DNA of 64,000 nucleotides from NCBI GenBank assembly GCA_021813145.1, contig JAKALS010000002.1:35595-99594 (forward strand), given 5' to 3'. Shown in pieces: positions 42,518 through 63,937 of the stretch; the first letter of the stretch is position 1, and the number at the start of each line of letters is the position of its first letter. The translations under genes and the position numbers were made by a program. This stretch comes from a bacterium (GTDB lineage: Bacteria; Patescibacteriota; Microgenomatia; Levybacterales; UBA12049). The notes below the pieces were generated by a model, which was given only the letters and a program-made list of their open reading frames with translations, ran no database searches and had not been told where the DNA came from.

Positions 42518-42534
42518 TAAATTCTGCCCTCTGT

Positions 42535-43749: not shown

Positions 43750-44468
43750 ATAATCCTCATCTTTATCACACAAAATAGGGAATTTAAGAGTTCTTTCGTA
43801 TTTACATTAGACTTACCGTACACTCTGTAATTCCATGTTATCGGAACTTCTCCTATCGAATAACCTTTAAGATATATTTTATATGCACTTTCCGAAAGAG
43901 TTATAAAACCTTTTGAATACATCCTTGTTTTTGTTAGATAATTGACCGAGCGCCGGCTGTAAAGTCTAAACCCGCTCGTATGGTCGCTTAAATGAATTCC
44001 CAGCCAATAGTATAAAAATCTGTTTATCATTCTACTCATTATTGTTCTGTCTGGAGCAATATTTATTATTTTTCCTCCGGGCAGATACCTGGATCCTATT
44101 ACAAGATCAAATTTTTTTTCCTTAATTTTTTCCATAAATCTTTTCATTTCTTTGGGATCGTGTGCCAAATCCGAATCCATCTCGAAAACATAGTTTATTT
44201 CTCTATCTTTTAAAGCCTCTTTAAAACCTTCTATTACCGCACTTCCCCTCCCGCCTTTTTTAAATCTTGATATAAGCATTGTATTTCTTTTCCCTTTAAG
44301 TATGGCCTTGAGTTTTTTATTTTCTTTAGGCAAAGAATCGTCTACTATAATTATTTTTGCCGAAGGAAACAGTTTTCTTATACCCTTCATCAAGATAGAT
44401 ATATTCTTTACCTCGTTATACGAAGGAATCACTATTGCAAAATTATTTTTCATAAATAGTAACTGCAA
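43746..44468 (-). CDS. GT2 polyprenol-phosphate sugar synthase (dolichol-P-mannose synthase-like)
   Basis: [21 protein letters not shown] and DSDLAHDP are typical of DPM1/GtrB-like enzymes. Confidence 0.7.
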
Positions 44469-47007: not shown

Positions 47008-47054
47008 TAAAAACTTGTTGAAATTATAGCATTTTCTGTTTTAAAATACATTAA

Positions 47055-48896
47055 ATGTGGCTTCATTTATTTACAACCCTGCCTTCAAATATTCTCACGA
47101 ACTTTGAATATCTTAAAGCGGATTTTACGGGTTTTCATATCTCTTTAAATTTCTTCCTCAACTTTGTTCTGGGAAATTTTATATCGGCTGTTTTTCTCAC
47201 ATTAGCACTATTAATCGGTAAAAATATAAAAAAATTATTATTCATGAATAATAATTTAAATTATCTGACTGATTTTGCATTAGGTTCTATATTTATAGGC
47301 ACCGGAGTAGCTATACTTGGTTTTTTCTCTTTAATAAACCGCCTGTCTCTTAGTGTTTATATTTTGTTTTTATTCCTAATTTCTTTTTATCAAGTAGACC
47401 TTAATTACTTTAGAAATGTCAAAAAAGATTTTTTTGCCGACATAAATATTTTAAAAAGGAAAAAATTAGTTTTCATTTGGGTTTTACTTTTTATTTTGTT
47501 AGCGACCGTAAATCTTATAAATCCCGAAATACGGGAAGACCAGTATCATGTGGATTTACCCAAGATGTATCTGGCCCAAAAGACAATAATGATACCCTCC
47601 AAAGAACAAATCCATGTCTCCGCAAGTCCTCTTTTATCGGAAATGACTTATATGCTGGGTATTTTTGTATGGTCCGAAGAATCGACAAGATACATCCATT
47701 TTTTATTTTATCTGTTTGTTCTTTTAACCTTACTGCAATTTTCTAAAATTAAAGGTTATGAATTTTCAATATTTACCCCGCTTCTATTTGTCAGCGCACC
47801 GGTTGTTTTACATGAAACATCGTCTATGTATGTAGACTTTCAGTGGATTTTTTATTTCTTGCTGGCAATTCTATCAGTAATAAAACAAAAAGATATTTTA
47901 ACATCTAATATTTTTCTTACAGGAATCCTGCTTGGAGCTATGGTTTCCTCAAAGCTTTGGACAATAGTTTTTATTCCTGTAATTGTAGTTTTTCTGTTTA
48001 TAGCTGAAAGAGACAGCGGTATAAAGAAAATTTTAAAATATTTTATTATATTAGCTGCAGGAACCTTACTAATATCTTTTATATGGTTTTTAAGAGCATA
48101 TATCCTAATGGGTAATCCGTTCTACCCTGCTTTTGCCAATCAGCAGGTTTTAGGAGAACCGGCATTTAAAGTACCTATTACAAGACTTATTACGCTTAAT
48201 ACTTTCCTTATAAACCCTTTTAACAGTCTGAATATCGTTAGCCCGTTATTTTTTGCTGGAATCTTTCTATTTCTTTACAAATTTGAAAACAATTTAAAGA
48301 TGATAAAAAATAGAATGTTTCTTCTGCTTGGACTAACTTTGTTGTTATATCTTTCGATAAATTACCCTTACGGAAGATATCTTTTAGGTCTTTATGTTTT
48401 GTTTATTTTCTTTTCTTCTGTAGGAATTGCCAATACCTACAAATTTTTATCTGTCAGATTGCTTTTAAATACGGTTTTATTTTTAATATTCGGTTACTAC
48501 TTTATTAATTCCGTAATGGTTTTACCTTATGCTATCGGAATAGATAACAAAAATAACTACCTTACCAGAATTTTATCCAGAGACAACTCGAGCTATTATA
48601 ATTTCGACAACAAATTTAATAAATTTATCAACAAAAAAGATTACGTGGCGACATATGGAATATTCGGCTATTATTATGCGGATTTTAAATATACCGATGT
48701 TGATTATGTTTTTAATGAAGAAGGAGAATCTTTTAATCTATTAAAAGAAAAAGGGGTAACAAAACTTTTTATAAAAGGAGGGGACATAAACTATTTTTGC
48801 TCTGTTTTAAAATTAAAAAACTGTACACCCGATAAATATACTTACCTTTCCGGTTTTATGGGAACCCAACCCTATTATCTTTATGGTATAAAATAG
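47055..48896 (+). CDS. Polytopic membrane protein, putative GT-C glycosyltransferase
   Basis: 613 aa with many TM helices. No signature recognised. The call rests on context. Confidence 0.3.
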   Translation: MWLHLFTTLPSNILTNFEYLKADFTGFHISLNFFLNFVLGNFISAVFLTLALLIGKNIKKLLFMNNNLNYLTDFALGSIFIGTGVAILGFFSLINRLSLSVYILFLFLISFYQVDLNYFRNVKKDFFADINILKRKKLVFIWVLLFILLATVNLINPEIREDQYHVDLPKMYLAQKTIMIPSKEQIHVSASPLLSEMTYMLGIFVWSEESTRYIHFLFYLFVLLTLLQFSKIKGYEFSIFTPLLFVSAPVVLHETSSMYVDFQWIFYFLLAILSVIKQKDILTSNIFLTGILLGAMVSSKLWTIVFIPVIVVFLFIAERDSGIKKILKYFIILAAGTLLISFIWFLRAYILMGNPFYPAFANQQVLGEPAFKVPITRLITLNTFLINPFNSLNIVSPLFFAGIFLFLYKFENNLKMIKNRMFLLLGLTLLLYLSINYPYGRYLLGLYVLFIFFSSVGIANTYKFLSVRLLLNTVLFLIFGYYFINSVMVLPYAIGIDNKNNYLTRILSRDNSSYYNFDNKFNKFINKKDYVATYGIFGYYYADFKYTDVDYVFNEEGESFNLLKEKGVTKLFIKGGDINYFCSVLKLKNCTPDKYTYLSGFMGTQPYYLYGIK

Positions 48897-48914
48897 CTTT
48901 ATGGCTCTTATAAA

Positions 48915-50651
48915 ATGGTTTTTGTAAACATTATCGCTTCCCTTATTTTAGGAGCAGGGCTTTTTGTCTACCGCTTTGTTTATCCTAAGAAAAAAATAAA
49001 TGTATTCGCACTTCTGTTGCTTATTCTGATTCTACCCGTTATAAGCATTACCAGAACGGGAGCATATCAATCGGGAGATTTTGATATTCATATTTACCGC
49101 ACAATGGCCTTTTACGGCTCTTTAAGCGAAGGGCACTTTATGCCTTCCTGGGCGGAAAATTTAAATGCCACATACGGATATCCGTTATTTATTTTCAACT
49201 ATGTTCTTCCTTATTACATTATTTCCTTATTCCATTTTATTGGGCTTAGTTATATTTCAAGCATGAAGCTATTTCTGGCATTAAGTCTTTATCTTTCAGG
49301 AATATTTATGTATATAATGGCAAAAGAAAAATTTAAAGATAATCTATCCGCCTTTACTTCCGCAATATTTTATACCTTTGTTCCCTATCATCTTATATCA
49401 GTACACTTCAAGATTACCATCGGGGAAGTACTGTCTTTTACGATTATTCCCGTTCTTTTTATATTTATTAACCGCTTATTAAAAAATAAAGATAAATTTT
49501 CCCTCATTCTTAGCGGATTTTTCTTAGGACTCTTGGGCCTAAGCCATATTTTTATTGCTATTATTATGGTCCCTATCCTTTTTGTTTATATTCTCTTCTA
49601 TGTTAAGCCCAAAACCGGCATCCTCTATTTTCTCTCAATCTTTGGAATAGGTGCGCTTATTACCTTTTATCAGTGGCTTCCTCCTATTCTTTATAACAAA
49701 TATCTTTTTATACATAAGTATCCTATTGATACCTCTGCTCTTTATTACCCGACGATAAAGGATTTATTGTATGCTCCTTGGAGATTCGGACTGCTTTTCC
49801 AGGGTCCTAAAGGGCAAATCTCCGACTTGATCGGTTATGCTCAATTATTCGTAATAGGTATCTTTGTATACCTACTTTTTAAGAAGAAAATCCCAAGGGT
49901 ATACACAAAAGAAATAATTGCCTGGCTTTTACTGTTTTTAGTGCTGATATTCTTTATTACTCCTTATTCAAAGATAATATGGATACACCTGCCGCTTATA
50001 AGTGATGCGGGAACCCAAAGATTACTTATACCTGTAGCCTTATCTACATCAATTCTTGCAGGCTTTCTTACCTACCTTAATCGAAAAAGAATTTTTCCAA
50101 TAACTCTGCTTATACTTTTTGCAATATTTTCTACAATTCTTAATTGGGGACAAAGAACTGTAATTCCCCAGATAAATGACTCTGTTCTTTCAAAAAATTT
50201 GCCTTATAGCACTTCCCAGGGAGAAGGACACTTCTATGCAAACACCGGGTGGGCAAACCCCAATCATCCCTGGTTTTCGGTGATTCCCTTAAATCATTTG
50301 GAAATTCTAAAAGGTATCGCGAAGTTTACGGAACTAAAAAGAATATCCGTTGAACATGAGTATATTATTAATTCCGTTACGCCTATAAGCGTAAACGAAA
50401 ACACCTTATACTTTCCCGGTTGGTCGGCAACAGATAACAAAAAACCGTTAGGAATAAGGCCAGACAAAAACGGAGTTATAACTTTCACCCTGCCTAAAGG
50501 GAAAAATCTTGTTATACTAAGATATAACGATTTATATTGGTTTAGTATAAGTAAGATTGTTAGCGGAGGATTAATTCTAATAATTATTCTTTTTTCAGGG
50601 TTTTACCTAACTAAGAAGATTTTATACCCCAAAGTTTTAAGTAAACATTAA
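48915..50651 (+). CDS. Polytopic membrane protein, YfhO/GT-C-like
   Basis: 578 aa with many TM helices and a C-terminal extracytoplasmic domain. The call rests on context. Confidence 0.3.
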   Translation: MVFVNIIASLILGAGLFVYRFVYPKKKINVFALLLLILILPVISITRTGAYQSGDFDIHIYRTMAFYGSLSEGHFMPSWAENLNATYGYPLFIFNYVLPYYIISLFHFIGLSYISSMKLFLALSLYLSGIFMYIMAKEKFKDNLSAFTSAIFYTFVPYHLISVHFKITIGEVLSFTIIPVLFIFINRLLKNKDKFSLILSGFFLGLLGLSHIFIAIIMVPILFVYILFYVKPKTGILYFLSIFGIGALITFYQWLPPILYNKYLFIHKYPIDTSALYYPTIKDLLYAPWRFGLLFQGPKGQISDLIGYAQLFVIGIFVYLLFKKKIPRVYTKEIIAWLLLFLVLIFFITPYSKIIWIHLPLISDAGTQRLLIPVALSTSILAGFLTYLNRKRIFPITLLILFAIFSTILNWGQRTVIPQINDSVLSKNLPYSTSQGEGHFYANTGWANPNHPWFSVIPLNHLEILKGIAKFTELKRISVEHEYIINSVTPISVNENTLYFPGWSATDNKKPLGIRPDKNGVITFTLPKGKNLVILRYNDLYWFSISKIVSGGLILIIILFSGFYLTKKILYPKVLSKH

Positions 50652-51681
50652 CCAAATTTTCCCAGGTTTGATTTTTAACCCAATTATACGCGTCATTAAT
50701 TTCCAGTTCGCTGTTTTTATTTAAAACTTTAATTAATTTTTCCGCAATTTCTTCTCCGTTTTTTGCAATAATTATATCTTTTGCAAAAGGCGCCATTTGC
50801 AAATAATCTCTCTTAATTGCATTGTTATATTCTGCAATAACTAACTTTTTTGCCGCCATTGCTTCCAGTATCCCTAGGTATCTGGAAACAAATACATAAT
50901 TTGCAGAATTGATATATTTTTCAACATTATTTATAAAACCTTTAAATTCTACGTTAAGATCGTTTTCTTTTACGTACTTTTTAGCAGCATTTTCGAGGCT
51001 ACCTTCACCTAGAACTGTTAGCTTTAAATCCTTTCCTTTATTTCTTAATATACTTAATGCTTTCAAGTACTCTAATATTCCTGTTTCTTCTTCCAGTCTC
51101 CCGACAAAGACAGCCTCGTTTTTTGATTTTTCGCCCTTAAATTCATTTAAGTCTACCGCCCCGTATGTTACAAATGCAGGTTTTGTTCCATACCATTTTT
51201 TTAAAAAATCCCCTACGCATATATTTCCGTTGGAAAGTTTTTCAGCCAGCTTATGCATGTAAATCGCCTTTCTTCCCGGAATATTATTGCCTTCATATCC
51301 ATGGAAAGTAGTAAATATTTTTTTTCGAGGATATAAAAATCTAAAAAGCAAATACCAAAAGAATACGTCATGGCAATGCACTATATCTGCTTCTTTTATT
51401 AATTCACGTTTGCCCCAAAGCTCTTTCCATATCCTAAACTTCTTCCAACGGTTGTCTTTACCCGCTTCTATCTTAACCGAAGCTATCCCGAATACCTTTC
51501 CCGTGGCTTTAGCGCTTGAAGAATTTGAGTGCTTATCTAAACTATGAGTTTTTTCAAAATTTTCGGAAATAACCGTTACCCGATAACCATTTTCTGCTAA
51601 AATTTTTCCAATTTCTAAAACATGCCTCTCTACTCCCCCAATTTCCGGATAAAATCTCCTCGCTAAAAATAAAACCTTCAT
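50611..51681 (-). CDS. Glycosyltransferase family 4 (GT-B)
   Basis: MKVLFLARRFYPEIGGVERHV N-terminus. Confidence 0.7.
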   Translation of the reverse strand: MKVLFLARRFYPEIGGVERHVLEIGKILAENGYRVTVISENFEKTHSLDKHSNSSSAKATGKVFGIASVKIEAGKDNRWKKFRIWKELWGKRELIKEADIVHCHDVFFWYLLFRFLYPRKKIFTTFHGYEGNNIPGRKAIYMHKLAEKLSNGNICVGDFLKKWYGTKPAFVTYGAVDLNEFKGEKSKNEAVFVGRLEEETGILEYLKALSILRNKGKDLKLTVLGEGSLENAAKKYVKENDLNVEFKGFINNVEKYINSANYVFVSRYLGILEAMAAKKLVIAEYNNAIKRDYLQMAPFAKDIIIAKNGEEIAEKLIKVLNKNSELEINDAYNWVKNQTWENLVNVYLKLWGIKSS

Positions 51682-51763
51682 CTATGAAATTCTAGCATTT
51701 GAGGCTACAATAAACAACCTGCCAATTGCTCTTTAAATATATGAGGTAGCTATTCCGGATTAT

Positions 51764-52756
51764 TTACTTATTTGTGGATTGTTTGACAAAATACCTCTTC
51801 CAGCCGAAGGAAATCACCAGGTAAACAAGAAGGTCTATAAGCCAGAACCACTTGCAGAAGATGCTTGCGGAGTCTACTACAAACCACCAGACACCCTGCC
51901 CCAGGCAGCCTTTATTAATAAGAATAAATATTATGTAGGCCAGAATCGGAATTACCAGCCCCCATACCAGCTTTCTTTTTATATACTTCTTTCCTATCCC
52001 CTTGTTAAACACAAAGTACAAGTAAAGTATAAGTACAATGATTTCCCCTAAAATAATAGGCCACCAGATACACTGTCCGCATGCGCTTACCTTAACCTCT
52101 TCGTTGGTTGACTTGCCCAGTACCTCTTTTTTTGGGGCGGGAGTCGGCGAAACTGCAACTCCTAGGACTTCCTGCCCTCCCCCTATTCCCGTAACGGTTA
52201 CAGGGCCTGCAGGGTCTCCGGGCATACAGCCGTTAACCGCTTTTACCCAGAAAAAATACTGGTTAACCGCAAGACCCGAAATGGTATAGCTTGTAACGTT
52301 GCCCGTATCGGGAACTCCCCATTTTTGAGTATCGGGATTGTCGGAATAAGATATCTGAAACGTTGTAAAAGGCCCCTGCGGGGGGATCCAGGAAAGGGTT
52401 ACCTCCCCCGGCCCCGGCCCTGCAACTGCAACTAAGCTAATCGGTGTACCTACCGGTTTTGTATCGGAACATGTAGACGAAGAGCTTCCCCCTCCTCCTC
52501 CCCCTCCGCCATTATTATTGTTTCCGTTGGGGGACGTAGTAGGAGAAGGTGTAGAAGAAGGATTAGGGTTATTAGCTACCGAACAGGGGTTACCGGATGA
52601 ATTAACAGAATTAATATTCACGCAATTAGAAACAACCGTTCCGCTGAATGCGCTACCCGTATTTACCTCCTGCGCGTACACAGAAAACATGCCGGCCATA
52701 AGGAAAAAGCCGATAATCAAAATAAACCCTAATAAAAATTTATTTAGTTTTTTCAT
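51764..52756 (-). CDS. Secreted/membrane protein: signal peptide, poly-Asn/Gly linker, FN3-like domain, two EVLG motifs, C-terminal multi-TM region
   Basis: Seen in sequence. NNNNGGGGGGGGSSSS linker. FN3-like block is about 65% identical to the 56897..58117 protein. Motifs GQEVLGV and KKEVLGK. Confidence 0.6.
   Translation of the reverse strand: MKKLNKFLLGFILIIGFFLMAGMFSVYAQEVNTGSAFSGTVVSNCVNINSVNSSGNPCSVANNPNPSSTPSPTTSPNGNNNNGGGGGGGGSSSSTCSDTKPVGTPISLVAVAGPGPGEVTLSWIPPQGPFTTFQISYSDNPDTQKWGVPDTGNVTSYTISGLAVNQYFFWVKAVNGCMPGDPAGPVTVTGIGGGQEVLGVAVSPTPAPKKEVLGKSTNEEVKVSACGQCIWWPIILGEIIVLILYLYFVFNKGIGKKYIKRKLVWGLVIPILAYIIFILINKGCLGQGVWWFVVDSASIFCKWFWLIDLLVYLVISFGWKRYFVKQSTNK
52130..52510. repeat. 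Paralogous DNA segment (poly-Gly/FN3 module), copy 1; copy 2 at about 57000-57400
   Basis: Roughly 85% nucleotide identity by eye across about 110 bp (compare 52215-52325 with 57092-57200). Confidence 0.5.
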
Positions 52757-54933
52757 AGAAGAAAGATTTTTAACGCCTTCATTCTTTCCTCAAGGGAAAT
52801 TCTTTTTCCGAATATTGTCACAAACTTATCTTTTTGCCTGAAGCTCTTTAAAGCTATATATGCCATTATTACCGTAATCAAAGCATACAAAGGTCCGTAA
52901 TCGTTACCGGCTGTACCATTTTTAATTGCCGTAGGATAATGAGCTCCCAATACTTCGGATTTAGGATTATTAGGAGTTTGGAAAATAACGGAGTTACTTA
53001 CAAATCCTCCTCCCAAAACCGTAAAGTAAGAATCTCCAAATGCCGTTACTGTTGCGTCATTCGGCCCCACATTTCCATACGCAAAGGCCCGAGCAGTGTA
53101 TATTCCCGAAGGGGTATTGTCCGACAAAACAAGACCCGTTGAGACCTTAACCCCCTGCCCTGCAGGAATATTTCCCAGGTTGTATCCTGCTCCTCCCGCT
53201 GGAACACCGTTTCTCATTAAATAAAGCATCAGTTTTGCGTTATAAACAGTTCCCGTTCCCGTATTTTTTACATTAATAAAGAAGGTAACCGTATCACCGG
53301 GCTTAACATAACTTCCCGTGTTATTAGTGTTTTCCACGGAAAGCATTCCTCCAGATTCCATAGTCGAAGTCGTAGTAGAGGTCACCGTATTGGTATTGGT
53401 ATTTGTATTTGTATTTGTATTGCTTTGGATGCTTGGAAAATTGCTCGCTCCGCCTATATCTCCGTTCCAGTCTCCGAAAATATTAATAAATCCGAAAAAT
53501 CCTACGGAGTTTATAAAGGTGCTGTTTATAAAATTTATTAGAGATATAACACTATATGCATTGCCTGTAGTTATATAACCGCCACCCGAAAGATTATTTT
53601 CTCCCGTATTTGCAAACGAGGAAATATTATTGTTTATTACGGCATTATTATTAATATTAGTATTGGCCGAACAGGAGGCACAATTACTCGTATTCGGACC
53701 GAGGCTATAAAATACAAGAGTCGCTCCTCCCGACTGGGGATCCAAAGCTCCCCACCCTACAAAATTACCGTTCCAGTTGCCGTAATCGTTAATATACAAA
53801 ACTTTAGCATTTACCCCCACAAGATTTGTATTTACAAGATTTATTGTATTTATATCACTTGTAGAATTTCCTGTATTAAAGGTGGCGCTGCCCGAAGCCG
53901 TATTTTGTCCCGTATTTGCACCGGAATTTAGATTATTATTGACATCTGCATTGTTGTTTGTATTAAGATTGACTCCGCAAGTGGAACTTGAACAGTTTGT
54001 TGATGAATTCAAGTCGGGAAGAATTATATTTCCGTTCAGTTTCCCAAAAAGGTTTATTGTAATTACATGAATTTCGGAATTAACAACGGTAAAATTAACC
54101 TTATTAAGAAGCGACACCACCGAGTATGCATTTCCCGTATTAATAACTGCCGAATCTGTTGCCCCATTCACCTGATTGCTTCCCGTATTTGCAAAAGACA
54201 CAAGGTCATTGGAAAGATATGAATAGTTATTAATCGTTGTGGCAGAAATATTAATTGTGGGTTCATTTGGATAGGATTGAACGGCGTTAGCCGCAAGAGT
54301 AAAAGGATCGGAAAGGTTAATATCTCCGTTTTGTGTTACAAAAATATTTATTGTCTGGTAAACAACCTGTGAGTTAACGTTTGTACTATTTACCGTATTA
54401 TCCGCCGAAATTACGGAAGCGGCATCCCCCGTGTTAACAGCAGTGTTTGATGAAACAGTTGAACCGTTATTCGTAGCAGCCGAACCCGTTGCATCAACAG
54501 TATTGTCTCCCGTTATAGCCGAGGATGATGCGGAATTTGTAACATCCGCCGAGTTTGAAGCATTAAGTATTGTATCAACAGGAGAAGGAGTGGGTGTAGG
54601 CGAAGTGCTTGGATCGGGTGTTGTACTAGGATCGGGTGCTGGAGAAGACGTTGTATTAACTGTATCTGTGGTAACCGTAGTGCCCGATGGCGAAGGAGAA
54701 GGGCTTGGGCTTGAACTTGGGTCAGGTGTAGAACTTGGAGCGGGAGTTGAACCTACCGAATTATTTCCGGTATTTGTGATAGTCGTTGAAGTATTATCGA
54801 CCGTAGTAGGGCTGGAAGAAGGACTCGGAGAAGGAGATGCATCATCGGCAAAAGCAGGAGCGGGCACAGAATATAGAAGCACTATTGTTAATGCTAAAAA
54901 TACTGCGAAAATTTTTTTTATTTTTAATAACAT
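52753..54933 (-). CDS. Large secreted Pro/Thr/Ser- and Asn-rich surface protein with C-terminal SEVLGA motif + hydrophobic helix + basic segment
   Basis: Signal peptide, SPSPSP...TPTPSP linker, Asn/Thr-rich repeats, a (NT)n tract, and C-terminal ...KSEVLGAHYPTAIKNGTAGNDYGPLYALITVIMAYIALKSFRQKDK... Confidence 0.6.
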   Translation of the reverse strand: MLLKIKKIFAVFLALTIVLLYSVPAPAFADDASPSPSPSSSPTTVDNTSTTITNTGNNSVGSTPAPSSTPDPSSSPSPSPSPSGTTVTTDTVNTTSSPAPDPSTTPDPSTSPTPTPSPVDTILNASNSADVTNSASSSAITGDNTVDATGSAATNNGSTVSSNTAVNTGDAASVISADNTVNSTNVNSQVVYQTINIFVTQNGDINLSDPFTLAANAVQSYPNEPTINISATTINNYSYLSNDLVSFANTGSNQVNGATDSAVINTGNAYSVVSLLNKVNFTVVNSEIHVITINLFGKLNGNIILPDLNSSTNCSSSTCGVNLNTNNNADVNNNLNSGANTGQNTASGSATFNTGNSTSDINTINLVNTNLVGVNAKVLYINDYGNWNGNFVGWGALDPQSGGATLVFYSLGPNTSNCASCSANTNINNNAVINNNISSFANTGENNLSGGGYITTGNAYSVISLINFINSTFINSVGFFGFINIFGDWNGDIGGASNFPSIQSNTNTNTNTNTNTVTSTTTSTMESGGMLSVENTNNTGSYVKPGDTVTFFINVKNTGTGTVYNAKLMLYLMRNGVPAGGAGYNLGNIPAGQGVKVSTGLVLSDNTPSGIYTARAFAYGNVGPNDATVTAFGDSYFTVLGGGFVSNSVIFQTPNNPKSEVLGAHYPTAIKNGTAGNDYGPLYALITVIMAYIALKSFRQKDKFVTIFGKRISLEERMKALKIFLL
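53387..53422. repeat. In-frame hexanucleotide tandem repeat (GTATTK)x6 encoding (Asn-Thr)n
   Basis: Seen in sequence: gtattggtattggtatttgtatttgtatttgtattg. Confidence 0.7.
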
Positions 54934-55116: not shown

Positions 55117-55623
55117 TTAAGGAGTAGGCACGTTGAACATATTGGTGTTAACAACATTGCTTACAACCGAATAGGATGTAGCGGAACCGGTATGAACTGG
55201 AGACTGATAAATAGACGCTCCATAGTGTCCGGTTACCCCGTTATAGCCCGTATTGGACGATGTATTAACATTATTGGACACTGTACCCGAATTTGACAGG
55301 TCAAAATCCAAGAAGTGTACACCGCTGAGGCTTAAACTGCCGGTCGATTGATTCCAGTTAAGCTGGGTTTGAACATTGGCGCTCGAAAGAGCATTGCCGG
55401 ACGTAAGAGAACTGTTCGTTACTCCTCCGTCTTCGCCCCATGCAGTTAAACCGTTATATCCAGTATTAGAGCTTGTATTTACAGAATTACTGACCGTTCC
55501 TGAATTTGAAATATTGACGAAAGCTTTTGGACCTTCATACCACGCAAAAGCCGGAACCGATGTTGCTAAAAGTAATGCTGCTGCTGCTCCTGTTGCTGCT
55601 AATTTTTTGAACATTTTATTCAC
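55117..55623 (-). CDS. Small secreted protein with an internal tandem duplication
   Basis: Signal peptide ending ...VPAFA. About 24-aa block SNSGTVSN(S/N)VNTSSNTGYNG(L/V)T occurs twice. Confidence 0.55.
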   Translation of the reverse strand: MNKMFKKLAATGAAAALLLATSVPAFAWYEGPKAFVNISNSGTVSNSVNTSSNTGYNGLTAWGEDGGVTNSSLTSGNALSSANVQTQLNWNQSTGSLSLSGVHFLDFDLSNSGTVSNNVNTSSNTGYNGVTGHYGASIYQSPVHTGSATSYSVVSNVVNTNMFNVPTP

Positions 55624-55750
55624 CTCCTTCCCTACGTTGGATAGTTTGATATAGTTAATACTATATTCATTATCCGAGTGGAATTAATACTAAATTTATT
55701 TCATGATTAAAAAATAAAAGAATTGTAAGAAGTCTGTAAGAGACCGAAGA

Positions 55751-56158
55751 CTAAGCGTTACTCAAGGTAAAGAAGCTTAAAACTTTATCGAAGAAACCAA
55801 GCACCATGCTTTTGAATGCCGATACTATATTAAAATTTCTTGTTTCCGAAACGGTTATAGTTTTATTAGAAGGGATAGGAAGCTGAGGAGTAACTGTGGC
55901 CGAAGGAGTCGCTATTATTTTTGAACTTGTCGAACTTCCGTTTGATTTTACTTCTACTTTATAGGTCCCCGGACCGGTAGCATCAAGAGTTTTTGTTACC
56001 CTGTTTGCCGTAGTTTCTATATGGGTTTGCACATTCCCGCTTCCCTGTATTTCGGTTTGAACACTGGACCGAGCAGCCGAATTGCCGTTTGTTACTTCGG
56101 CCGAGGAAATTTGGGGGAATAAAAATACCATCACTGCCGTAAGTAAAAGATATTTCAT
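55751..56158 (-). CDS. Small secreted protein (signal peptide) with C-terminal MVLGFF segment
   Basis: Signal peptide FLFPQISSA. No homology recognised. Confidence 0.45.
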   Translation of the reverse strand: MKYLLLTAVMVFLFPQISSAEVTNGNSAARSSVQTEIQGSGNVQTHIETTANRVTKTLDATGPGTYKVEVKSNGSSTSSKIIATPSATVTPQLPIPSNKTITVSETRNFNIVSAFKSMVLGFFDKVLSFFTLSNA

Positions 56159-56304: not shown

Positions 56305-56922
56305 TTACTTTTGGGGAATTGCAGTAACAATAAGACGTTTTTCATCGTAAAATCCGGTACATGTATAAAGGGTAAGGGTGTCTGTTCTTGTCGGAGCAAT
56401 TACATCTGTCTGGTTTGGGTAGACTGCTGTAATTTTATTCACTTTATATCTGTACCATTTGTTTTTTGTAAAAATATAAATAATATCTCCTGTTTTTACG
56501 TCTTTAAGGTTGTAGAAAAGCCCCTGTCTTGCATGGGCAAAAATTACAGTGTTCCCCGCAGTCCCGGGATGGCCGCTCCCCAGCCCGTAAGAAGCCGTAT
56601 TATCCGAAAGTTCCCAATATCCGTTAACTACTTTTGCGTCAACTACGGGAAGGTCGATTTCTACCGAAGGAATTAAAATTCTTACCGGATCGCTTTGAAC
56701 AGACTGCTCTGCCAAAAGCTTCGGAGAAATTTTAATGGGATTAGTCGTATTGCTTTGGCTAGTAGTGTAATAAGAAGACCCAACAAGAATTGCAAGCGCT
56801 GCAATAAGAAAAACGAGACTTAAAATTTTGTATTTTAAGGGGTTTTGCTGTTTGGTTCTTTTCCCGGATTTTTTAGGAGTTTTTTTAACTTTTTTCTTAG
56901 GCATTCTTTTTAAATAAGGCAA
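56305..56922 (-). CDS. Sortase (membrane-anchored transpeptidase)
   Basis: Basic N-terminus plus a TM helix. Catalytic His region TVIFAHARQG. Catalytic Cys/Arg in DTLTLYTCTGFYDEKRLIV (TLxTC...R). Overlaps the upstream 56897..58117 gene by 26 nt. Confidence 0.8.
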   Translation of the reverse strand: MPYLKRMPKKKVKKTPKKSGKRTKQQNPLKYKILSLVFLIAALAILVGSSYYTTSQSNTTNPIKISPKLLAEQSVQSDPVRILIPSVEIDLPVVDAKVVNGYWELSDNTASYGLGSGHPGTAGNTVIFAHARQGLFYNLKDVKTGDIIYIFTKNKWYRYKVNKITAVYPNQTDVIAPTRTDTLTLYTCTGFYDEKRLIVTAIPQK

Positions 56923-58117
56923 ATCCCGTAATGCTTAAGATTAAAGAAGCGAATATCTGCAACGCAAAAAGATTATTTGTATCCCCTGCCGTATAGGAAA
57001 GGCCTAAAACACCGGGCCCAGTCGAAGCTCCCAGGACCGCCTGGGTAGGGCCTCCTGTTCCCCCCACTGTTACAGGTCCAACAGCATCTCCGGGCATACA
57101 TCCGTTAACCGCATTTACCCAGAAATAATATTTAGTGACCGAAAGACCCGAAATTGTATAGCTTGTTACATTTCCCGTACTTGATACTCCCCATTTCTTT
57201 GTTCCTGGATCATCGGAATAAGATATGGAATAATCTGTTACAGGCCCCGAAGGAGCCGCCCATGTTAATGTTACCTGACCTGCGCCCGGCCCCGATACTG
57301 CCGTTACATTAGTAGGGGCTCCGGGTTTTTGATCTGAGCATACAGGAGGATTCGAGCTTCCTCCCCCGCCTCCCCCATTACTTCCCCCACCTCCGGGTGT
57401 AGAAGTAGGAACGGGCGTAGGCGTTGAAGTTGGTATGGGTGAAGTTGTTTCCTCGGGCTGGCAATCCTGGTTAGTTTCACAATTACTCTCTCCCACACCG
57501 GGGAATTTCACGCATTGGTAATCATTATTGCAAGAATCGTAATAAGCTTCCGTCTGGCAATCCTGATCGACCTCACAATTACTTTGTTTTATACCCTCAT
57601 GCTTTATGCATTGCCTATCTTCATTGCATGTATAGTAGTAATGAGGTGTCGGAGTTGAAGTCGGTGAGCAGGTCGGGGAAGAACTCGGGCTAGGATTCGG
57701 ACATTCTACCCAGAACTCCTTGTGTTTAACATTTTGCTCGTTACTGCCTTCCCAATTAAGGCGGTAGTGTCCGTTAGACAATGAATAATCTTGTGTCTTA
57801 TAGAACCCGGATGGACTTGTGTTATATGTTCCTGACTCAACTTGTGACCCGTTTCCGGTAGGCTGCCAGGAAAGGATTTCCCATGTGCCTGATTGAGAAG
57901 GATCAGCAAAATAAAAGGCTATATAGAAAGTGCAAACGTGCGGATCGTTATCGGGGAGATCAATTCCTGCGCTAACATCATGAATTTTAACCGTCCCATT
58001 ATTTCCATTATCAGCTTTTGCGATTAGAGGATTTAAAGCCAGAATAAATAATGCCAAAGTAAAAAAAGCAGTTAGTAGAATCAATCCCTGTGCTTTCATA
58101 AAATTCTTGATTTTCAT
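56897..58117 (-). CDS. Secreted surface protein: Cys-rich tandem repeats, poly-Gly linker, FN3-like domain, AVLGA/GVLGL motifs, TM helix, KKNA tail
   Basis: Signal peptide. Two roughly 32-aa CxxxxQC...NCExxQDC repeats. GGGGSNGGGGGGSS linker. C-terminal ...TQAVLGASTGPGVLGLSYTAGDTNNLFALQIFASLILSITGFALFKKNA. Confidence 0.65.
   Translation of the reverse strand: MKIKNFMKAQGLILLTAFFTLALFILALNPLIAKADNGNNGTVKIHDVSAGIDLPDNDPHVCTFYIAFYFADPSQSGTWEILSWQPTGNGSQVESGTYNTSPSGFYKTQDYSLSNGHYRLNWEGSNEQNVKHKEFWVECPNPSPSSSPTCSPTSTPTPHYYYTCNEDRQCIKHEGIKQSNCEVDQDCQTEAYYDSCNNDYQCVKFPGVGESNCETNQDCQPEETTSPIPTSTPTPVPTSTPGGGGSNGGGGGGSSNPPVCSDQKPGAPTNVTAVSGPGAGQVTLTWAAPSGPVTDYSISYSDDPGTKKWGVSSTGNVTSYTISGLSVTKYYFWVNAVNGCMPGDAVGPVTVGGTGGPTQAVLGASTGPGVLGLSYTAGDTNNLFALQIFASLILSITGFALFKKNA
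57450..57660. repeat. Tandem duplication of about 95 bp (Cys-rich module) inside the 56897..58117 gene
   Basis: ctggcaatcctg recurs at 57458 and 57553. The encoded repeats are YYTCNEDRQC... and YYDSCNNDYQC... Confidence 0.55.
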
Positions 58118-58147: not shown

Positions 58148-61100
58148 CTACTGCCTTCTTAGATACTTTCTTAATAAAATTCCGCTTAGTAATACAAATA
58201 GAAGTACTACAAATGCCCAGCCTATCGAAGCCATGCTAATACCCTTTGTCAGCAATGCAGGTTTTTGCGAAGGAGTTGGCGTAGATGAAGGTTTAGCACT
58301 TTCTGTTGCCGCACCCAAAACTTCCTGTCCGGGTGCAGTTTCTTGAAGAGTCGGTTCTGCATTTTCGGAAGTATTGGCTCCTAAAACTCCCTGTATTGTA
58401 TTTGCAGCCAAAACCGATGGACCTGCCGAAGGCGCTCCTCCGCCTCCTGATGAGCCTCCGTCGGATCTCCCGTCTCCGGGAAGTCCAAAAATATAATAAG
58501 TAGAAAAAGCTGTTTCGTTTCCAACCGCTTCGGGAGATCCCGCCGAAATAGTTCTGTAATAATAATCCTGATTTACGGTTAAACCGTTTACTGTTACAGA
58601 ATGACTAGTAACTTTATTAGTATCTTCTACCGTTGAATAGGCATAACCGTAATTCGGAGCGCTTCCCAATGTGGGATGGGAAACTGTATCGTAGACTACC
58701 CTGCTTGTTGCAGGGAAATTAGTTGCCCATGTTATTAATACCGAGTTATCTCCTGTACGTACAATCTTTTGGTCGGAAATAATAGGAGGAACATTGTAAA
58801 CTCCACTAAAGGTTGTGCTGTTGCCGGCATTATCGTATGCAATTGCATTTATCGTAAGGTCGCGGTCAACAACAATGGGCGAAGAATATAAAACTTTTGT
58901 TGCGGAAGTTGCAGGATTTGTTCCGTCGGTTGTATAGTAGACATCTTTTACTCCGCTTAAATTATCGGTAGCAATTAGAGCAACATTTGTCGGATTATCC
59001 GGCTGATCTCCAGGCAACGGATTCGCAGTCAAGGCGGGAGCAGTTGCATCATATACATAATGCACAGGAGCGCTCCATGCCCCGACATTACCTGCGTTGT
59101 CAACGGCCCTTACATAAATCGTAACTCCGCCTTGTTCATTTAATCCGGGAACATGTCCTCTAGAGGTTACATTTCCGGCTACATCACGGCATCCGCCATT
59201 TGGTAAGTCCGAGCATGTACTCCCGGAAAAAGTGTGATGGTCATCGTAGACGTATCCTACTTGATACTTAGCAATTCCGCTGGTATCCGTAACCGCTGTC
59301 CAATTGGCAGTAATTGGTATTGAATTAAAGTAGTCTCCATTACTTGGAGACGTGATTGTAGGCGCTGATGGAGCTGTCCAATCAACTGTATATGTACAAC
59401 TGTTATTAATACCCTCGCTGCCACCAAACCAAGCTGATTTATTTCCTGCTTTATCAACTGCCCTTACTTGAACTCCATAGGTTCCTTGCACAGGCACCGT
59501 CCACCAGGAAGCATTGAAGTATGGAGTCGTAAAAGTTCGAATAGGACCAACGCTTCCATCAGCATTAAAAGAGACATATTCATAATGATCGAAATCCGCC
59601 TCGGTATTAGCATTCCAATACACATCAAAATTCCTTGCAGATGTTATTCCTCCACAAGCAACATCTTTATTATTTACAGTATCTTTGAAATAAATTCCTG
59701 TTGGAACAGCCGGAGCCGTGCTATCTATATTTACCGCCCATGGACCTGACCAATTACTGCAGTTTCCAACACTATCACAAGCTCTAACTTGCCAATAATA
59801 CAAATGGTCACTGGAGCCGGAAGCATCAATTTGAGACGCTGTTCCCGTATTTTTATTATATATAGGTGAAACGAAACCATTACCAGCACCTACCGCAGAA
59901 CTATAAGAAGACTGATAGTAGTAAGTAACGGGTAAGCTGGGATCAGTGACATCCGACCAATCCAAAATCAAACCTCCCGGTTTTACAAAAGCGCCGTTTG
60001 CGGGACTTACTAGTGTCGGAACATTTGGAGCAGTTTTATCAATTGTAAATTTATATTCTGTCGAATTCCCAGCCTTGTCTACTACTACCATTCGATAACT
60101 ATCATCGGCTAGCCAAAAAAGACCAAACCACTCACCTGTATAAATCTTAAATGGACTGGATTCACCTTCTCTATATAATTCAGTTTGTAAATAATTAGTG
60201 TCAATTGCATGAACATTAATGTTTGTACTGCCGTTATATAGGGCTTTTGGAGCAACGCCGTCTATAGTGGCTGTTGGAGCTGTTCGGTCGACATAGATTG
60301 TGCGAATAGCATTTACACTCCAATTCAAAGCCATATCTTGGGCACCTACTTGGACATAGTATTTTCCATCCGACAAATTACTAGGCAAGTGCACTTTGCA
60401 AATTCCGGAATCACTCGTACCACTTTCATTTGAATTGTTATAACATGTGGCAACCCAATGGTTTGAATGCGAAGAATCAGTATCATAAAAGCTAACATTG
60501 ACGCTTTTTAGCGCTACATTATCACTTGCTGTGTAACCAACATCGAAGTTACTGTTAACATATGCATTGTTGGCTGGTGTGGGCAAAGTAAAGGACACCG
60601 TGGGTTTGGTGGTATCTGGTCCATTACAGAGTCCATTAAGATCCGGAGTAGTCAACCAGGTTGAGAAATCAACATTAGTACTAACCTTATCTCCAGAACC
60701 AGGCCCCACCGGTCCTGGACCCGTTGCGCTTCCCCACCAATTGCAGGTTGCTTTGACTAATGGGTTAGAGTTGTCATTCTGAACACCGATTGGATTTCCG
60801 GTAATTTGATTACGGTTAACAACAACCTGATCAGATATAGTATTCACAGGTACTAGAATTCCCGCATTCGCCATATTTGTAATTATATTGTTGAGCACTT
60901 GAATATTTTGGTTTAATCCAGTACCGAAGTCATTAGATAGACGAACCCCTCTATAGCCATTATCAAGATTGTTATTTTGAATAGTAACGCCATTATTACC
61001 AAGTCCTACGAAAATTGTCGAACTTTGATTAAAACCCGATCCTGTGTTGGTGGAGGTATTTTCACTTACATTTACGGTAGTGTTATTAACTAGAACTACG

Positions 61101-63937
61101 AAACTCCCATCATTATGGCTAGTGTTATTTGTGATCGTCAGATTTGTTGAATTGTCAATATTTATTGCTGCATAGTCTCCACCATCTCCATGGTCATGAC
61201 CAAAGAAGCTATTGTCCTTAATGGTTAAATCATTACTTACGGCCGAGGCCATCCAGATACCCGCATCTTGTTTATAAACATCGCCCGATTCATCAAAAAA
61301 TTCATTTTTATCTACTGTCATTCCGCTGGATACATTTGTACTTGGCCCCTGAACATGTAAACCCTCATATAGGTTTTTAAAAATTGTGTTTGTAATATGA
61401 ACCCCTGAAGTTGCCACCCCAGCTGCAGCATTTATCCCCCAGGTTTGATTGCCGGGTGTCCCTGCGCCTTGAATATAAAATCCATCGATTGTTACATTAT
61501 TTGCTTTAATTGAAATAGCCGAATTTCCAACTCCACCGCTTTGTGCCGGAATTATTGACTCAGAAGAACTATTTCGTCCCCTTGCATCTATGCCTTCCTG
61601 AGCACCATTAAGAGTAAGCGATTTGTTAATAGTTATCGATTCCGTATAAGTTCCGGGTGCTACATCAACTGTTCCATCTGCAGAAACTCCATTTACACCA
61701 TCCTGAATTTTTGAAAACGCATTGATGCCGTAATATCGGTAAGTTCCATCAGAAGCCAGTACTTCCGGATAAGTATTAGAACCGGAACTAAGCGTGCTCC
61801 AGCTACCATCAACCGAGACGGTCGATGTGGCAAGCGAAAGCGGTTTGCCATTGAAAGTATTACCGGTTAACGTTACTGTCGATGCGCTTGGATTAGATTC
61901 GAGTCTAAGAGCCATGGAATCTGTACCGAGCTTGTGGTCAGTAAGCCCAGTGACAGTGTTGCCCGTTATGACCGCACCGGGAGTGTTGCTTTCAAGCCCA
62001 ATGGCATGTGCCCAAAGACCTTTAAGAGTTCCAATTGTATTATTAGCAATATTAAGGCCGGTTGTCTTGTGGTTAACAAGAACACCATATGCACCTGCTC
62101 CTCCTCCGTAAGACGACCCTCCAATCCAGCCTGCTGTTGAGGCATAAATGTTATTCATGGTATTATCTGAAATAGCCACATTTGATATCGTATTTGAACC
62201 GGTGGAATTACCGAGATAAACTCCTTTCGCACTACTTCCGGCGGATCCTGCATGCAACATACCGGTATTGCCAATATCAGAAATTGTATTGCCATTAATA
62301 GTTATATTAGTTACATCTGCAGAATTACTTATAATGCCAATAGCCTGGGCCGAACCACTTTTGAGTGATGTGCCAATATCATGAATTGTGTTATTTGTGA
62401 TGTGAAGATTACTATGATCGGTTGAAATGATACCAGATCCTGAATCCTGATTCTTAATATTCATGCCGTCTACCGTCACATTATCGCTTGAAATGGTGAT
62501 CTGACCGGTAAGATTAGCTCCGCTTACTCCCTGAAGAGTAATATTTTTTGAAATATTTGGATTTTCGGCATAATTTCCCGCGGCTACATTTACTGTCCCA
62601 CCGGAAGAAACAGCATTGATTCCATCTTGAATAGTAGCAAAGGCGTTAATCCCAAAAATCTTTCCTCCGCCCAAATCTGCCCCTGTAATATCTCCTGCCC
62701 AACTTGCATCAACATAAATTTCACTCATTCCCACAAATGCAATTGCATCGGCTGCAAGGTTACCGCTTGTTGAAGCCTCAACGGATAATGTAATTGTGTT
62801 GCCGGAAACTAAATTATATCTGCCTGAGTTTGGAAACCAACCCGACCAGGTTCCATTTGTCATGTCTGTAACACTTGCATTAGCGGGTTCCTTTTGATTT
62901 ACTCCCGTCAGATCAAACCCGATAATATTAGAGGAAGTGTAATGCGCATTTGTTGCATGATCATCCCAAATAACCCAACTTGGTAAAATAGCATATACTC
63001 CCGAATCACCGTTAAAAGTCCATGTTGCAACTTTTCCTGTTTGAGACGGGGATACCCAATGATGGTCTCCATCATAACCGGCACTTGTATAAACATTCCA
63101 TCCGTTATCACTATAACCCGCTCCCCCGTCATCTACTACGATAAAGATTGTAAAGTGGTTAAGTCCCGTTATTGTTACAACATTTCCCGTTGTCTGGTTT
63201 GCCTGGTTAACCCCTGAGGTTTTTAATCCGTCTACCGTTTCCGATGACTTTATTCCGAGGGTTTTACCTTGGGCGGTATCGGGTACGGGTAACGTTAGAT
63301 TATACTGGAATGTTCCGTCCGTCATATCGGATGATATGTTATAAGCGGTATCCGAAAGAGAACCCGTTGCTTTTTGTTGATCTGCAGTTAATTTAACTTC
63401 TGTAATTGTTAATTTTCCGGGGTTATCTGGTAGTTTTGTAAATGTTACCGTAACTTTGCTGTTTTGGGGAGCTTTATAAACCTGGTTTAAAGAAACTGTA
63501 CCTGTTGTTGTTTGTGAGCCATCGGGATTTTCCTGCCATTGAGGAGAATTTAAAGTAGCGCTTGGCTGAACATCTTTTGAAGGAGGAGAGAGATTGCCTG
63601 CGGGCGTAGGCGATGGGGTTATTGTATCAACCGGAGAAGCTATTGGTGTTGACTCAGGAGTAGCGGTAGGAACAGGTGTGTCGGTAGGCACGGGTGTAGA
63701 AATATCGGACGGACTTGCAGACGGTAAAACGGTAGGAGCCGGTGTTTGGCTAACTGCAGACGAAGAAGAAGGTGCGGGTGTCGGAGCGTCTGTCGGAGAA
63801 GGGCTTGCCGAAACTTGAGCAGTTTCTTGGGCGAATGCTTTTTGAGTGTTTATAAGCGCTAGAGGACTAAGCGCTTGGACAAGGAGTGCGTATAGAGCAA
63901 TCAGGGAAATGAGCTTTTTCCCAATTTTTTTGAGCAT
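58148..63937 (-). CDS. Giant (1929 aa) secreted surface protein: signal peptide, PT-rich linker, right-handed beta-helix (pectate-lyase-like) repeats, FN3/Ig-like domains, C-terminal GVLGA...QEVLGA motifs + TM helix + RKYLRRQ tail
   Basis: Recurrent beta-helix motifs ITNNTIHDIG, INGNTISDIGN and IANNTIGTL. C-terminal ...QEVLGAATESAKPSSTPTPSQKPALLTKGISMASIGWAFVVLLFVLLSGILLRKYLRRQ. Confidence 0.7.
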   Translation of the reverse strand: MLKKIGKKLISLIALYALLVQALSPLALINTQKAFAQETAQVSASPSPTDAPTPAPSSSSAVSQTPAPTVLPSASPSDISTPVPTDTPVPTATPESTPIASPVDTITPSPTPAGNLSPPSKDVQPSATLNSPQWQENPDGSQTTTGTVSLNQVYKAPQNSKVTVTFTKLPDNPGKLTITEVKLTADQQKATGSLSDTAYNISSDMTDGTFQYNLTLPVPDTAQGKTLGIKSSETVDGLKTSGVNQANQTTGNVVTITGLNHFTIFIVVDDGGAGYSDNGWNVYTSAGYDGDHHWVSPSQTGKVATWTFNGDSGVYAILPSWVIWDDHATNAHYTSSNIIGFDLTGVNQKEPANASVTDMTNGTWSGWFPNSGRYNLVSGNTITLSVEASTSGNLAADAIAFVGMSEIYVDASWAGDITGADLGGGKIFGINAFATIQDGINAVSSGGTVNVAAGNYAENPNISKNITLQGVSGANLTGQITISSDNVTVDGMNIKNQDSGSGIISTDHSNLHITNNTIHDIGTSLKSGSAQAIGIISNSADVTNITINGNTISDIGNTGMLHAGSAGSSAKGVYLGNSTGSNTISNVAISDNTMNNIYASTAGWIGGSSYGGGAGAYGVLVNHKTTGLNIANNTIGTLKGLWAHAIGLESNTPGAVITGNTVTGLTDHKLGTDSMALRLESNPSASTVTLTGNTFNGKPLSLATSTVSVDGSWSTLSSGSNTYPEVLASDGTYRYYGINAFSKIQDGVNGVSADGTVDVAPGTYTESITINKSLTLNGAQEGIDARGRNSSSESIIPAQSGGVGNSAISIKANNVTIDGFYIQGAGTPGNQTWGINAAAGVATSGVHITNTIFKNLYEGLHVQGPSTNVSSGMTVDKNEFFDESGDVYKQDAGIWMASAVSNDLTIKDNSFFGHDHGDGGDYAAINIDNSTNLTITNNTSHNDGSFVVLVNNTTVNVSENTSTNTGSGFNQSSTIFVGLGNNGVTIQNNNLDNGYRGVRLSNDFGTGLNQNIQVLNNIITNMANAGILVPVNTISDQVVVNRNQITGNPIGVQNDNSNPLVKATCNWWGSATGPGPVGPGSGDKVSTNVDFSTWLTTPDLNGLCNGPDTTKPTVSFTLPTPANNAYVNSNFDVGYTASDNVALKSVNVSFYDTDSSHSNHWVATCYNNSNESGTSDSGICKVHLPSNLSDGKYYVQVGAQDMALNWSVNAIRTIYVDRTAPTATIDGVAPKALYNGSTNINVHAIDTNYLQTELYREGESSPFKIYTGEWFGLFWLADDSYRMVVVDKAGNSTEYKFTIDKTAPNVPTLVSPANGAFVKPGGLILDWSDVTDPSLPVTYYYQSSYSSAVGAGNGFVSPIYNKNTGTASQIDASGSSDHLYYWQVRACDSVGNCSNWSGPWAVNIDSTAPAVPTGIYFKDTVNNKDVACGGITSARNFDVYWNANTEADFDHYEYVSFNADGSVGPIRTFTTPYFNASWWTVPVQGTYGVQVRAVDKAGNKSAWFGGSEGINNSCTYTVDWTAPSAPTITSPSNGDYFNSIPITANWTAVTDTSGIAKYQVGYVYDDHHTFSGSTCSDLPNGGCRDVAGNVTSRGHVPGLNEQGGVTIYVRAVDNAGNVGAWSAPVHYVYDATAPALTANPLPGDQPDNPTNVALIATDNLSGVKDVYYTTDGTNPATSATKVLYSSPIVVDRDLTINAIAYDNAGNSTTFSGVYNVPPIISDQKIVRTGDNSVLITWATNFPATSRVVYDTVSHPTLGSAPNYGYAYSTVEDTNKVTSHSVTVNGLTVNQDYYYRTISAGSPEAVGNETAFSTYYIFGLPGDGRSDGGSSGGGGAPSAGPSVLAANTIQGVLGANTSENAEPTLQETAPGQEVLGAATESAKPSSTPTPSQKPALLTKGISMASIGWAFVVLLFVLLSGILLRKYLRRQ

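Follow-up and report, generated by a model that had tools for sequence, protein, structure and literature searches.

Wall-anchored adhesins of the MSCRAMM or SD-repeat type are built from a head, a stalk, a wall-spanning region and a sorting signal, and PfbA, a beta-helix adhesin of Streptococcus pneumoniae, has a canonical LPXTG signal and attaches to host proteins. The gene analysed here encodes a protein of 1929 residues (P0001, hereafter the giant) and lies in a stretch of 64,000 nucleotides, the window, of contig JAKALS010000002.1 (assembly GCA_021813145.1, positions 35,595 to 99,594) from a bacterium of the Patescibacteriota (Microgenomatia, Levybacterales). Adhesins are required for epibiotic growth in cultivated members of the Patescibacteria (Saccharibacteria; Wang et al. 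2023, PMC10633639). From its modelled folds and the order of its domains, we read the giant, with a probability of roughly 0.55, as a membrane-anchored, surface-displayed, glycan-binding adhesin or lectin of a Microgenomates/Levybacteria-like bacterium.

In concept, the giant is closest to beta-helix adhesins such as PfbA and to the wall-anchored head-stalk adhesins. The solved chains of PfbA (3zpp, 4mr0; 420-445 residues), annotated as cell-wall surface anchor protein, contain one helix, whereas the giant has two, together with a CBM-like domain, an extra N-terminal domain and seven Ig/FN3 modules, and has no LPXTG-like motif. As in the MSCRAMM/SD-repeat type, it shows a signal peptide, a head, an Ig-like stalk, a low-complexity segment (GDGRSDG followed by G/S/P/T), a hydrophobic segment and a basic tail, and a sortase gene is found nearby; in contrast to that type, no LPXTG-type motif precedes the transmembrane (TM) helix, a VLG[AET]xT motif lies 8-65 residues upstream of it, and the sortase falls outside the defined classes. 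The adhesins of cultivated Saccharibacteria (PMC10633639) are likewise Patescibacteria surface proteins that have been proposed or shown to act in host attachment, although the giant comes from another lineage (Microgenomates).

The helices also share features with the NosD/CASH (PbH1) proteins, namely the cap xFxTIQxAI..A..GdTI.V..GtY.E, an Asn ladder, the C-terminal cap NWWG and a partial match of helix 1 to TIGR04247, but here the helix modules are embedded in a 1929-residue surface protein. Membership of NosD was ruled out, as the TIGR04247 match reached 44.5 bits against a cut-off of 300 and no nos gene families were found among the scanned open reading frames (ORFs) of the window or in the precomputed Pfam list of its locus (L081). 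A phage origin, as in tailspike depolymerases, was also rejected, since a tblastn search with aa 420-1104 against 50,697 phage records gave zero matches at E<=1e-3 and the gene sits among housekeeping genes (IleRS, FtsW, L21, L27, ParB, signal peptidase).

The original prediction had described several blocks of beta-helix repeats, which turned out to be two separate modules (Table 1), both beginning with the usual cap motif. The Pfam model Beta_helix (PF13229) matched the protein with 47.2 bits against a cut-off of 25.9, in three stretches of which 924-1058 was the best. Structure prediction and fold comparison returned the beta-helix fold in two AlphaFold models (mean pLDDT, the predicted local distance difference test, of 82 and 88), with a pLDDT of about 90-98 for helix 1 and of 82 for helix 2 (pTM, the predicted template modelling score, 0.85), and the models superposed in three dimensions on solved members of the pectin-lyase-like right-handed parallel beta-helix fold. 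The structural neighbours of both helices were nearly all carbohydrate-active enzymes or the adhesin PfbA. The evidence fixes the fold and a carbohydrate theme, without deciding between lectin and enzyme.

For helix 2, 419 homologs were found, some of them stand-alone proteins of about 400 aa that occur in Actinomycetota, Chloroflexota and Acidobacteriota. This stand-alone family has a conserved polar patch (R865, D892, Q895, N897, Y918, N919 and E928 in the numbering of the giant) which is replaced in the giant and in its two closest Patescibacteria relatives; a catalytic site in helix 2 was judged unlikely on this ground. When the helix 2 profile was compared with the PDB, NosD was the best match (7o0y, E 1.4e-9), followed by PL6 alginate lyases (about 3e-6) and PfbA (7e-5), all of them through generic repeat features only. 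A relation to PL6 lyases was also set aside, since the PL6 chains aligned only in a generic manner, with gaps over their middle rungs.

Helix 1 behaved differently in this respect, as it retains a strongly conserved Y/W/H/E/D patch of its own. The conserved elements SAxG, GAYG, W642, H644, IGLE, D673 and E680 were present across 24 modules, distant ones included, and the patch residues Y617, W642, H644, E649, D673 and E680 were kept in these modules across several lineages. Their spacing of about 25 residues suggests that the patch runs along successive rungs of the helix, where it could form a ligand groove or an active site.

These residues, invariant or nearly so in the case of W642, H644, E649, D673 and E680, are part of what a surface polysaccharide-active enzyme (lyase, hydrolase or epimerase) would explain, with one helix, likeliest helix 1, as the catalytic module and the CBM35-like domain targeting the substrate, for example a polysaccharide of the host envelope. 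Such an enzyme would also fit the top structural neighbours of both helices, almost all of them lyases, glycosidases, epimerases or phage depolymerases, the CBM-plus-beta-helix layout that resembles GH87 alpha-1,3-glucanases (Foldseek E 7e-9 for the whole model), and the peptidoglycan-binding domain PF01471 carried by the relatives P0014, P0030 and P0210. We consider it rather unlikely, however, because no catalytic Pfam family (PL1/3/6/9, GH28, GH87, mannuronan C5-epimerase) matched the whole protein at E<=0.1, only the generic Beta_helix model doing so, helix 1 alone gave no sequence match in the PDB at E<=1, helix 2 shows the generic alignments and the substituted polar patch described above, and the adhesin PfbA scores as high as the enzymes. 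Compared with beta-helix enzymes of known structure (AlgE4, 2pyg; PL6, 7o7a and 7o84; GH87, 7c7d; RbmB, 9ozd; GH28, 1bhe), the giant has no family-level sequence match and no identifiable catalytic constellation, and the suggestion of the original prediction that the beta-helix could be an active lyase or hydrolase found no support. Binding is favoured over enzymatic activity because of the head-stalk-anchor architecture, the CBM-like domain and the hypervariability of the family.

The CBM-like domain (aa 271-408) is, in the AlphaFold model (pLDDT >90), a jelly roll superposable on CBM35. Foldseek matched it to CBM35 (2w46, 2w1w) and to MiXBM (7ehg) with a probability of 1.00 and target-normalised TM-scores of 0.53-0.69, and the Pfam family Golvesin_C (PF25275) aligned to it over profile positions 17-131 of 132 with an E of 5.5e-5 and 23.7 bits, below its cut-off of 31.6 bits; several relatives have precomputed PF25275 matches. 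Together with the carbohydrate-active and PfbA neighbours of the helices, this predicted jelly roll makes plausible the role in host attachment or carbohydrate binding that had been put forward from the sequence.

The preceding region (aa 125-270) was modelled as a beta-sandwich with one helix. No other part of the giants is as widely shared as this N-terminal domain, which defines the family and was found in about 70 of 88 matches. An exhaustive HMMER search of 1.84 billion proteins recovered it in 693 representative clusters, always near the N-terminus, the proteins having between 270 and about 3000 aa; neither Pfam nor NCBIfam holds a model that matched it, even at E<=10. A comparable linker precedes the domain in the relatives, whose median domain start is aa 111, and in the giant aa 38-124 (87 aa) consist of 71% P+S+T+A (24% P, 20% S, 16% T and 11% A). 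The signal peptide ends in A-x-A before QE, an ending ('FAQE', 'YAQE') that is kept with unusual uniformity in the family N-termini inspected. Both the signal peptide and a Pro/Thr/Ser/Ala linker of about 90 residues had been recognised from the outset.

On the other side of the helices, the Ig/FN3-like modules that had been read from the sequence were recovered by curated Pfam models above threshold (CHB_HEX_C_1, 49.3 against a cut-off of 22; Fn3_assoc, 48.4 against 23; Pur_ac_phosph_N, 32.4 against 30; DUF4625, 27.6 against 27), with weaker matches to Big_7, Big_13 and fn3. Along the stalk, module 1 corresponded to DUF4625/Big_7/Big_13, module 5 to a weak fn3, module 6 to CHB_HEX_C_1 (4.8e-13) and module 7 to Pur_ac_phosph_N (1.5e-7), while modules 2-4 gave weak Ig-like matches or none.

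The C-terminus of the giant reads ...SVLAANTIQGVLGANTSE...QEVLGAATES...(about 22 aa)...TM...RKYLRRQ. Its hydrophobic segment, ISMASIGWAFVVLLFVLLSGILL, followed by RKYLRRQ, has the hydrophobic and basic end of a sorting signal, and the residues before the TM helix are KPALLTKG, with no LPXTG-like motif among them. The layout of TM helix plus basic tail is present in most of the 89 family members. The motif D[GN][RKL]SD[GN], to which the GDGRSDG of the giant belongs, was found in 9 of these 89 proteins, confined to their last 200 aa, and also in sortase-adjacent proteins. In some of the latter (L012, L014, L057), GDG[RK]SDG is extended to a series of (SDG[RK])n units, after which CPxCTQ often comes; the GDG[RK]SDG motif is reminiscent of the wall-spanning SD repeats.

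A sortase gene, overlooked in the original prediction, is located two genes downstream of the giant on the same strand. Its product scored below the cut-off of every NCBIfam sortase class, and its His, Cys and Arg showed no variation among 29 relatives. The closest relatives (58-70% identity) come mostly from metagenome-assembled genomes (MAGs) of Levybacteria, and further ones from Gottesman-, Woese- and Roizmanbacteria, which assigns the window to the Microgenomates group. This Microgenomates sortase family has been described as near-ubiquitous, without a motif (PMC6744442). Among 80 related sortase loci (L001-L080), record names were of the candidate phyla radiation type (Levy-, Gottesman-, Woese-, Roizmanbacteria) or carried titles apparently mislabelled: many MAG records (L006, L007, L009, L011, L016 and others; CAZ.../CAY...) are titled 'uncultured Gammaproteobacteria' or 'Pseudomonadales', yet encode sortases that share 50-70% identity with the ones from Levybacteria MAGs.

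The 406-aa FN3 protein encoded between the giant and the sortase is the presumed cognate substrate. In nearly all of the 80 related loci, the sortase is immediately preceded by a gene whose product has a comparable signal at its end. This gene encodes a small secreted protein, often with an FN3 domain, whose C-terminus consists of VLG-L[SA]xT[SGA]G, a TM helix and a KKNA-like tail, or of VLGAxT-[LY][AG]xTG in the case of more distant sortases. Of 74 sortase-adjacent proteins, 65 had a motif of the sortase type (L[SA]xT[SGA]G or [LY][AG]xTG) immediately ahead of the TM helix, and VLG preceded or overlapped it in 54 of the 74 (VLGLSxTxG, VLGASTLAATG, VLGATG). Where the sortase is at least 39% identical, 40 of 46 loci had the form xLG-L[SA]xT[SGA], and among more distant loci 19 of 28 had [LY][AG]xTG; the type of signal follows the sortase clade, and VLG remains the same throughout.

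In the giant family, VLG occurred with a density of 9.3 per 1000 aa in the last 120 residues of the 89 members and of 0.37 elsewhere, a 25-fold enrichment. The consensus was GFxx[EGQ]VLG[AET]xT. Of 99 copies, 70 had Thr at +5, whereas at +6 Gly was rare and E, T and S dominated; the distance to the TM helix was 8-65 residues. VLG was present in 61 of the 89 proteins, VLG[AETVIS]xT in 49 and a motif of the sortase type in only one. The invariant VLG is common to the motif of the giants and to the extended Microgenomates-type sortase signal VLG-L[SA]xT[SG]G. No curated Pfam or NCBIfam model matched the C-terminal signal, even at E<=10. VLGA, a TM helix and basic residues also end the 406-aa protein and a 726-aa protein of the same cluster. 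The shared ending proposed earlier is thus real, present in three proteins of the cluster and concentrated at C-termini, and it is related to the sortase signal, but it is no canonical sortase signal. By the definition of the local system, the giant is not a canonical sortase substrate, and a retained membrane anchor is the simplest reading.

Were the giant processed at VLG[A]xT, whether by the sortase encoded nearby or by some other protease of the envelope, it would no longer be held in the membrane but would be linked to the wall, released or attached to the 406-aa FN3 protein, with VLG[AET]xT as a Patescibacteria-specific sorting or processing signal. The C-terminal enrichment, the conserved Thr, the position of VLG in 54 of 74 sortase-adjacent proteins, its constancy across sortase clades and its presence in three proteins of the cluster would all agree with such processing. 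The order giant, small substrate and sortase also recurs in L004, more loosely in L006 and probably in L083, the locus of the closest giant homolog, whose contig ends just after the small substrate gene and before any sortase is visible. Processing is nevertheless decidedly unlikely in our view. Gly after the Thr is rare, the motif is not adjacent to the TM helix and, where a protein has both elements, VLGAxT is found on the N-terminal side of the real L[AG]xTG site and would be kept on the mature protein. Furthermore, a giant-like gene is found in only 3 of the 80 sortase loci (L004, L005, L006) and, of five further family members, four have no sortase within 10 kb and the contig of the fifth ends too early, so that a general link between the giant family and sortases was discarded as a rule. 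The broader proposal that [EGQ]-V-L-G-[AET]-x-T is a Patescibacteria-specific sorting or processing signal, directing cleavage, wall linkage or release of the whole class of mosaic giants, with the N-terminal domain then as a host-recognition tip, is offered as tentative and rather doubtful.

The variability of the family was apparent from its relatives. The 88 relatives of the full protein are all mosaic, none of them covering more than 40% of the query, and those with names belong to Patescibacteria or Moranbacteria and are annotated as 'Ig-like domain' or 'right-handed parallel beta-helix repeat' proteins. The locus L085 has the same flanks as the one studied here (IleRS, FtsW, L21, L27, ParB and a divergent signal peptidase I), but its slot holds a different mosaic giant of 1497 aa, 34% identical over 35% of the query, which indicates that the giant locus is a variable surface-protein slot. 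The signal peptidase I gene (Peptidase_S26) is found just past the end of the window, divergent from the giant (9219-9776 in L081), and in the same arrangement in L085 (8642-9205).

Surface-layer and envelope proteins of prokaryotes often contain beta-helices of the NosD/PbH1 type with a CNWWG cap, as well as Ig-like domains in arrays. A structural role of the giant in the envelope (S-layer-like or sheath), with beta-helices and Ig domains as building blocks rather than ligand binders, would draw on this commonness, on the very large size of the protein and on its composition, with much T, S, G and N and little Cys. We regard this as highly improbable, since a mosaic family that is hypervariable between syntenic genomes fits the recognition of a host or ligand better than a conserved lattice, the CBM-like domain and the conserved groove patch point to ligand binding, and several paralogous families with different anchors are present in one cluster.

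In the favoured reading, as a glycan-binding adhesin or lectin, the giant would be exported by the Sec pathway and its signal peptide cleaved, and the C-terminal TM helix with its positive cytoplasmic tail would retain it in the membrane, in the topology that its sequence predicts. The G/S/P/T-rich segment of 83 residues with the VLG motifs would cross the cell envelope, and the seven Ig/FN3-like modules would form a stalk. This stalk would carry a distal head composed of the two beta-helices, the CBM35/Golvesin_C-like jelly roll and the N-terminal beta-sandwich, beyond which would extend the N-terminal P/S/T/A tail. The head would bind a polysaccharide or glycoconjugate presented by another cell or by a substrate, most likely through a ligand groove in helix 1, and the family would evolve by domain shuffling, the gene filling the variable surface-protein slot. 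Domains, models and sortase relatives agree with the original prediction of a secreted, C-terminally anchored modular surface protein of a Patescibacteria-type genome.

Several points weigh against this reading. The proposed function is deduced from modelled fold and architecture, a dense acidic/aromatic/His patch like the one in helix 1 is just as characteristic of active sites, and the fold of the most conserved part of the family, the N-terminal domain, is a predicted one. In addition, VLG motifs are also carried by true sortase substrates and the gene order mentioned above recurs (L004, probably L083, loosely L006), which makes processing at VLG possible, and the term 'wall-spanning linker' would be an analogy, as the envelope structure of these bacteria is poorly known.

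The integrity of the gene was supported in several ways. The coordinates of the giant correspond exactly to an ORF of 1929 codons from ATG to stop with zero internal stops, and it is the largest ORF of the window, as had been predicted, the next one being of 1073 aa. A protein with 100% identity was found in the public protein collection, called on five public contigs that stem from no fewer than two different ENA assemblies (ERZ27237538, 219 kb; ERZ27237587, 17.6 kb). No tandem repeats were detected inside the gene by Tandem Repeats Finder, nor internal repeats in the protein by self-BLAST, and an assembly collapse was thus discarded; with the identical independent assemblies and the intact ORF, a chimera or a frameshift is also unlikely. 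The promoter and terminator scan gave counts not clearly different from those of shuffled controls, and a single TTGACT-17-TACTAT site was present about 45 nt upstream of the ATG of the giant, beyond the window.

Table 1. Features of the giant gene and of its two downstream neighbours (positions in the window).
Feature	Position	Strand	Basis
Complete gene, 1929-aa surface protein P0001	58148..63937	(-)	ORF list and translation; identical product in public assemblies
Sec signal peptide, aa 1-36 (MLKKIGKK, hydrophobic core, AFA before QE)	63830..63937	(-)	Read from sequence; putative cleavage site between AFA and QE
N-terminal P/S/T/A-rich linker, aa 37-124	63566..63829	(-)	Composition
N-terminal beta-sandwich domain, aa 125-270	63128..63565	(-)	AlphaFold; common to about 70 of 88 homologs
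Golvesin_C/CBM35-like jelly roll, aa 271-408	62714..63127	(-)	Weak Pfam match, Foldseek and AlphaFold
Right-handed beta-helix module 1, aa 420-700	61838..62680	(-)	N-terminal cap motif FATIQDGINAV..GGTVNVAAGNY; NCBIfam NosD-like match; AlphaFold
Right-handed beta-helix module 2, aa 735-1104	60626..61735	(-)	C-terminal cap CNWWG...GPG...WL...C; Pfam Beta_helix; AlphaFold
Stalk, seven Ig/FN3-like modules, aa 1107-1816	58490..60619	(-)	Each bounded by D-x-T-A-P; putative boundaries for modules 2-4
G/S/P/T/A-rich juxtamembrane linker, aa 1817-1899 (83 residues)	58241..58489	(-)	Composition
GDGRSDG motif, aa 1821-1827	58457-58477	(-)	Directly after the last FN3 domain
Three VLG-type motifs: VLAANT aa 1842-1847, VLGANT 1851-1856, VLGAAT 1873-1878	58304..58414	(-)	Motif positions
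Transmembrane helix, aa 1900-1922, and basic tail RKYLRRQ, aa 1923-1929	58151..58240	(-)	Read from sequence
Downstream gene, 406-aa FN3 protein ending in QAVLGASTGPGVLGLSYTAGDTNN, TM helix and KKNA	56897..58117	(-)	Pfam fn3; stop overlaps sortase start
Sortase, 199 aa as called, Microgenomates-type	56305..56904	(-)	Pfam Sortase 2.6e-24

The cluster around the giant holds, besides the sortase, more secreted anchored proteins, belonging to several paralogous families with different anchors. The 726-aa protein (52753-54933, minus strand) is secreted, has a P/S-rich N-terminal linker, SEVLGAHYPT and a TM helix near its C-terminus and zero Pfam domains, and is distantly related, with 28% identity, to a 745-aa protein that neighbours a different giant homolog (L084). 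The stretch 55117-56158 (minus strand) encodes two small secreted proteins, one of 135 aa and one of 168 aa, which are repetitive, rich in N/S/T/V and without known domain; a homolog of the former (41% identity) is encoded directly upstream of the closest giant homolog (L083, 9525-9908). An alternative anchor, in which a multi-pass membrane domain with conserved Cys residues replaces VLG and the single TM helix, was found on an FN3 protein of the cluster (51764-52756, minus strand) and on some members of the giant family (P0013, P0021), as well as in L084 (14903-17140, minus strand). Finally, a low-GC island adjoins the surface-protein cluster (window positions 34000-52000; GC 0.31-0.35, against about 0.40 elsewhere) and contains genes for polysaccharide or glycoprotein synthesis, namely Wzy_C, GT2, two GT2-PMT_2 fusions, GT4, a Polysacc_synt_3 flippase and a C-methyltransferase, whose products could glycosylate the P/S/T-rich linkers.

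As a kind of protein the giant is known, since modular surface proteins with beta-helix, CBM-like and Ig/FN3 domains are fairly common in Patescibacteria, and it is unsurprising for the group. Three elements are missing from the curated libraries (Pfam, NCBIfam), namely the domain at the N-terminus, the motif VLG[AET]xT and the signal cognate to the Microgenomates sortase, although the literature search was limited and an earlier description is possible.

Patescibacteria are thought to live attached to other cells, and outside the cultivated Saccharibacteria their attachment molecules are largely unknown. The giant stands for a sizeable mosaic family with three handles, namely an uncatalogued N-terminal domain, a head of sugar-binding type with its candidate groove in helix 1, and an anchor-adjacent VLG motif, which are targets for binding or activity assays and for finding host-contact proteins in metagenomes. 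For annotation, the sortase signal VLG-L[SA]xT[SG]G, covarying with the sortase clade, may perhaps be the more reusable result.

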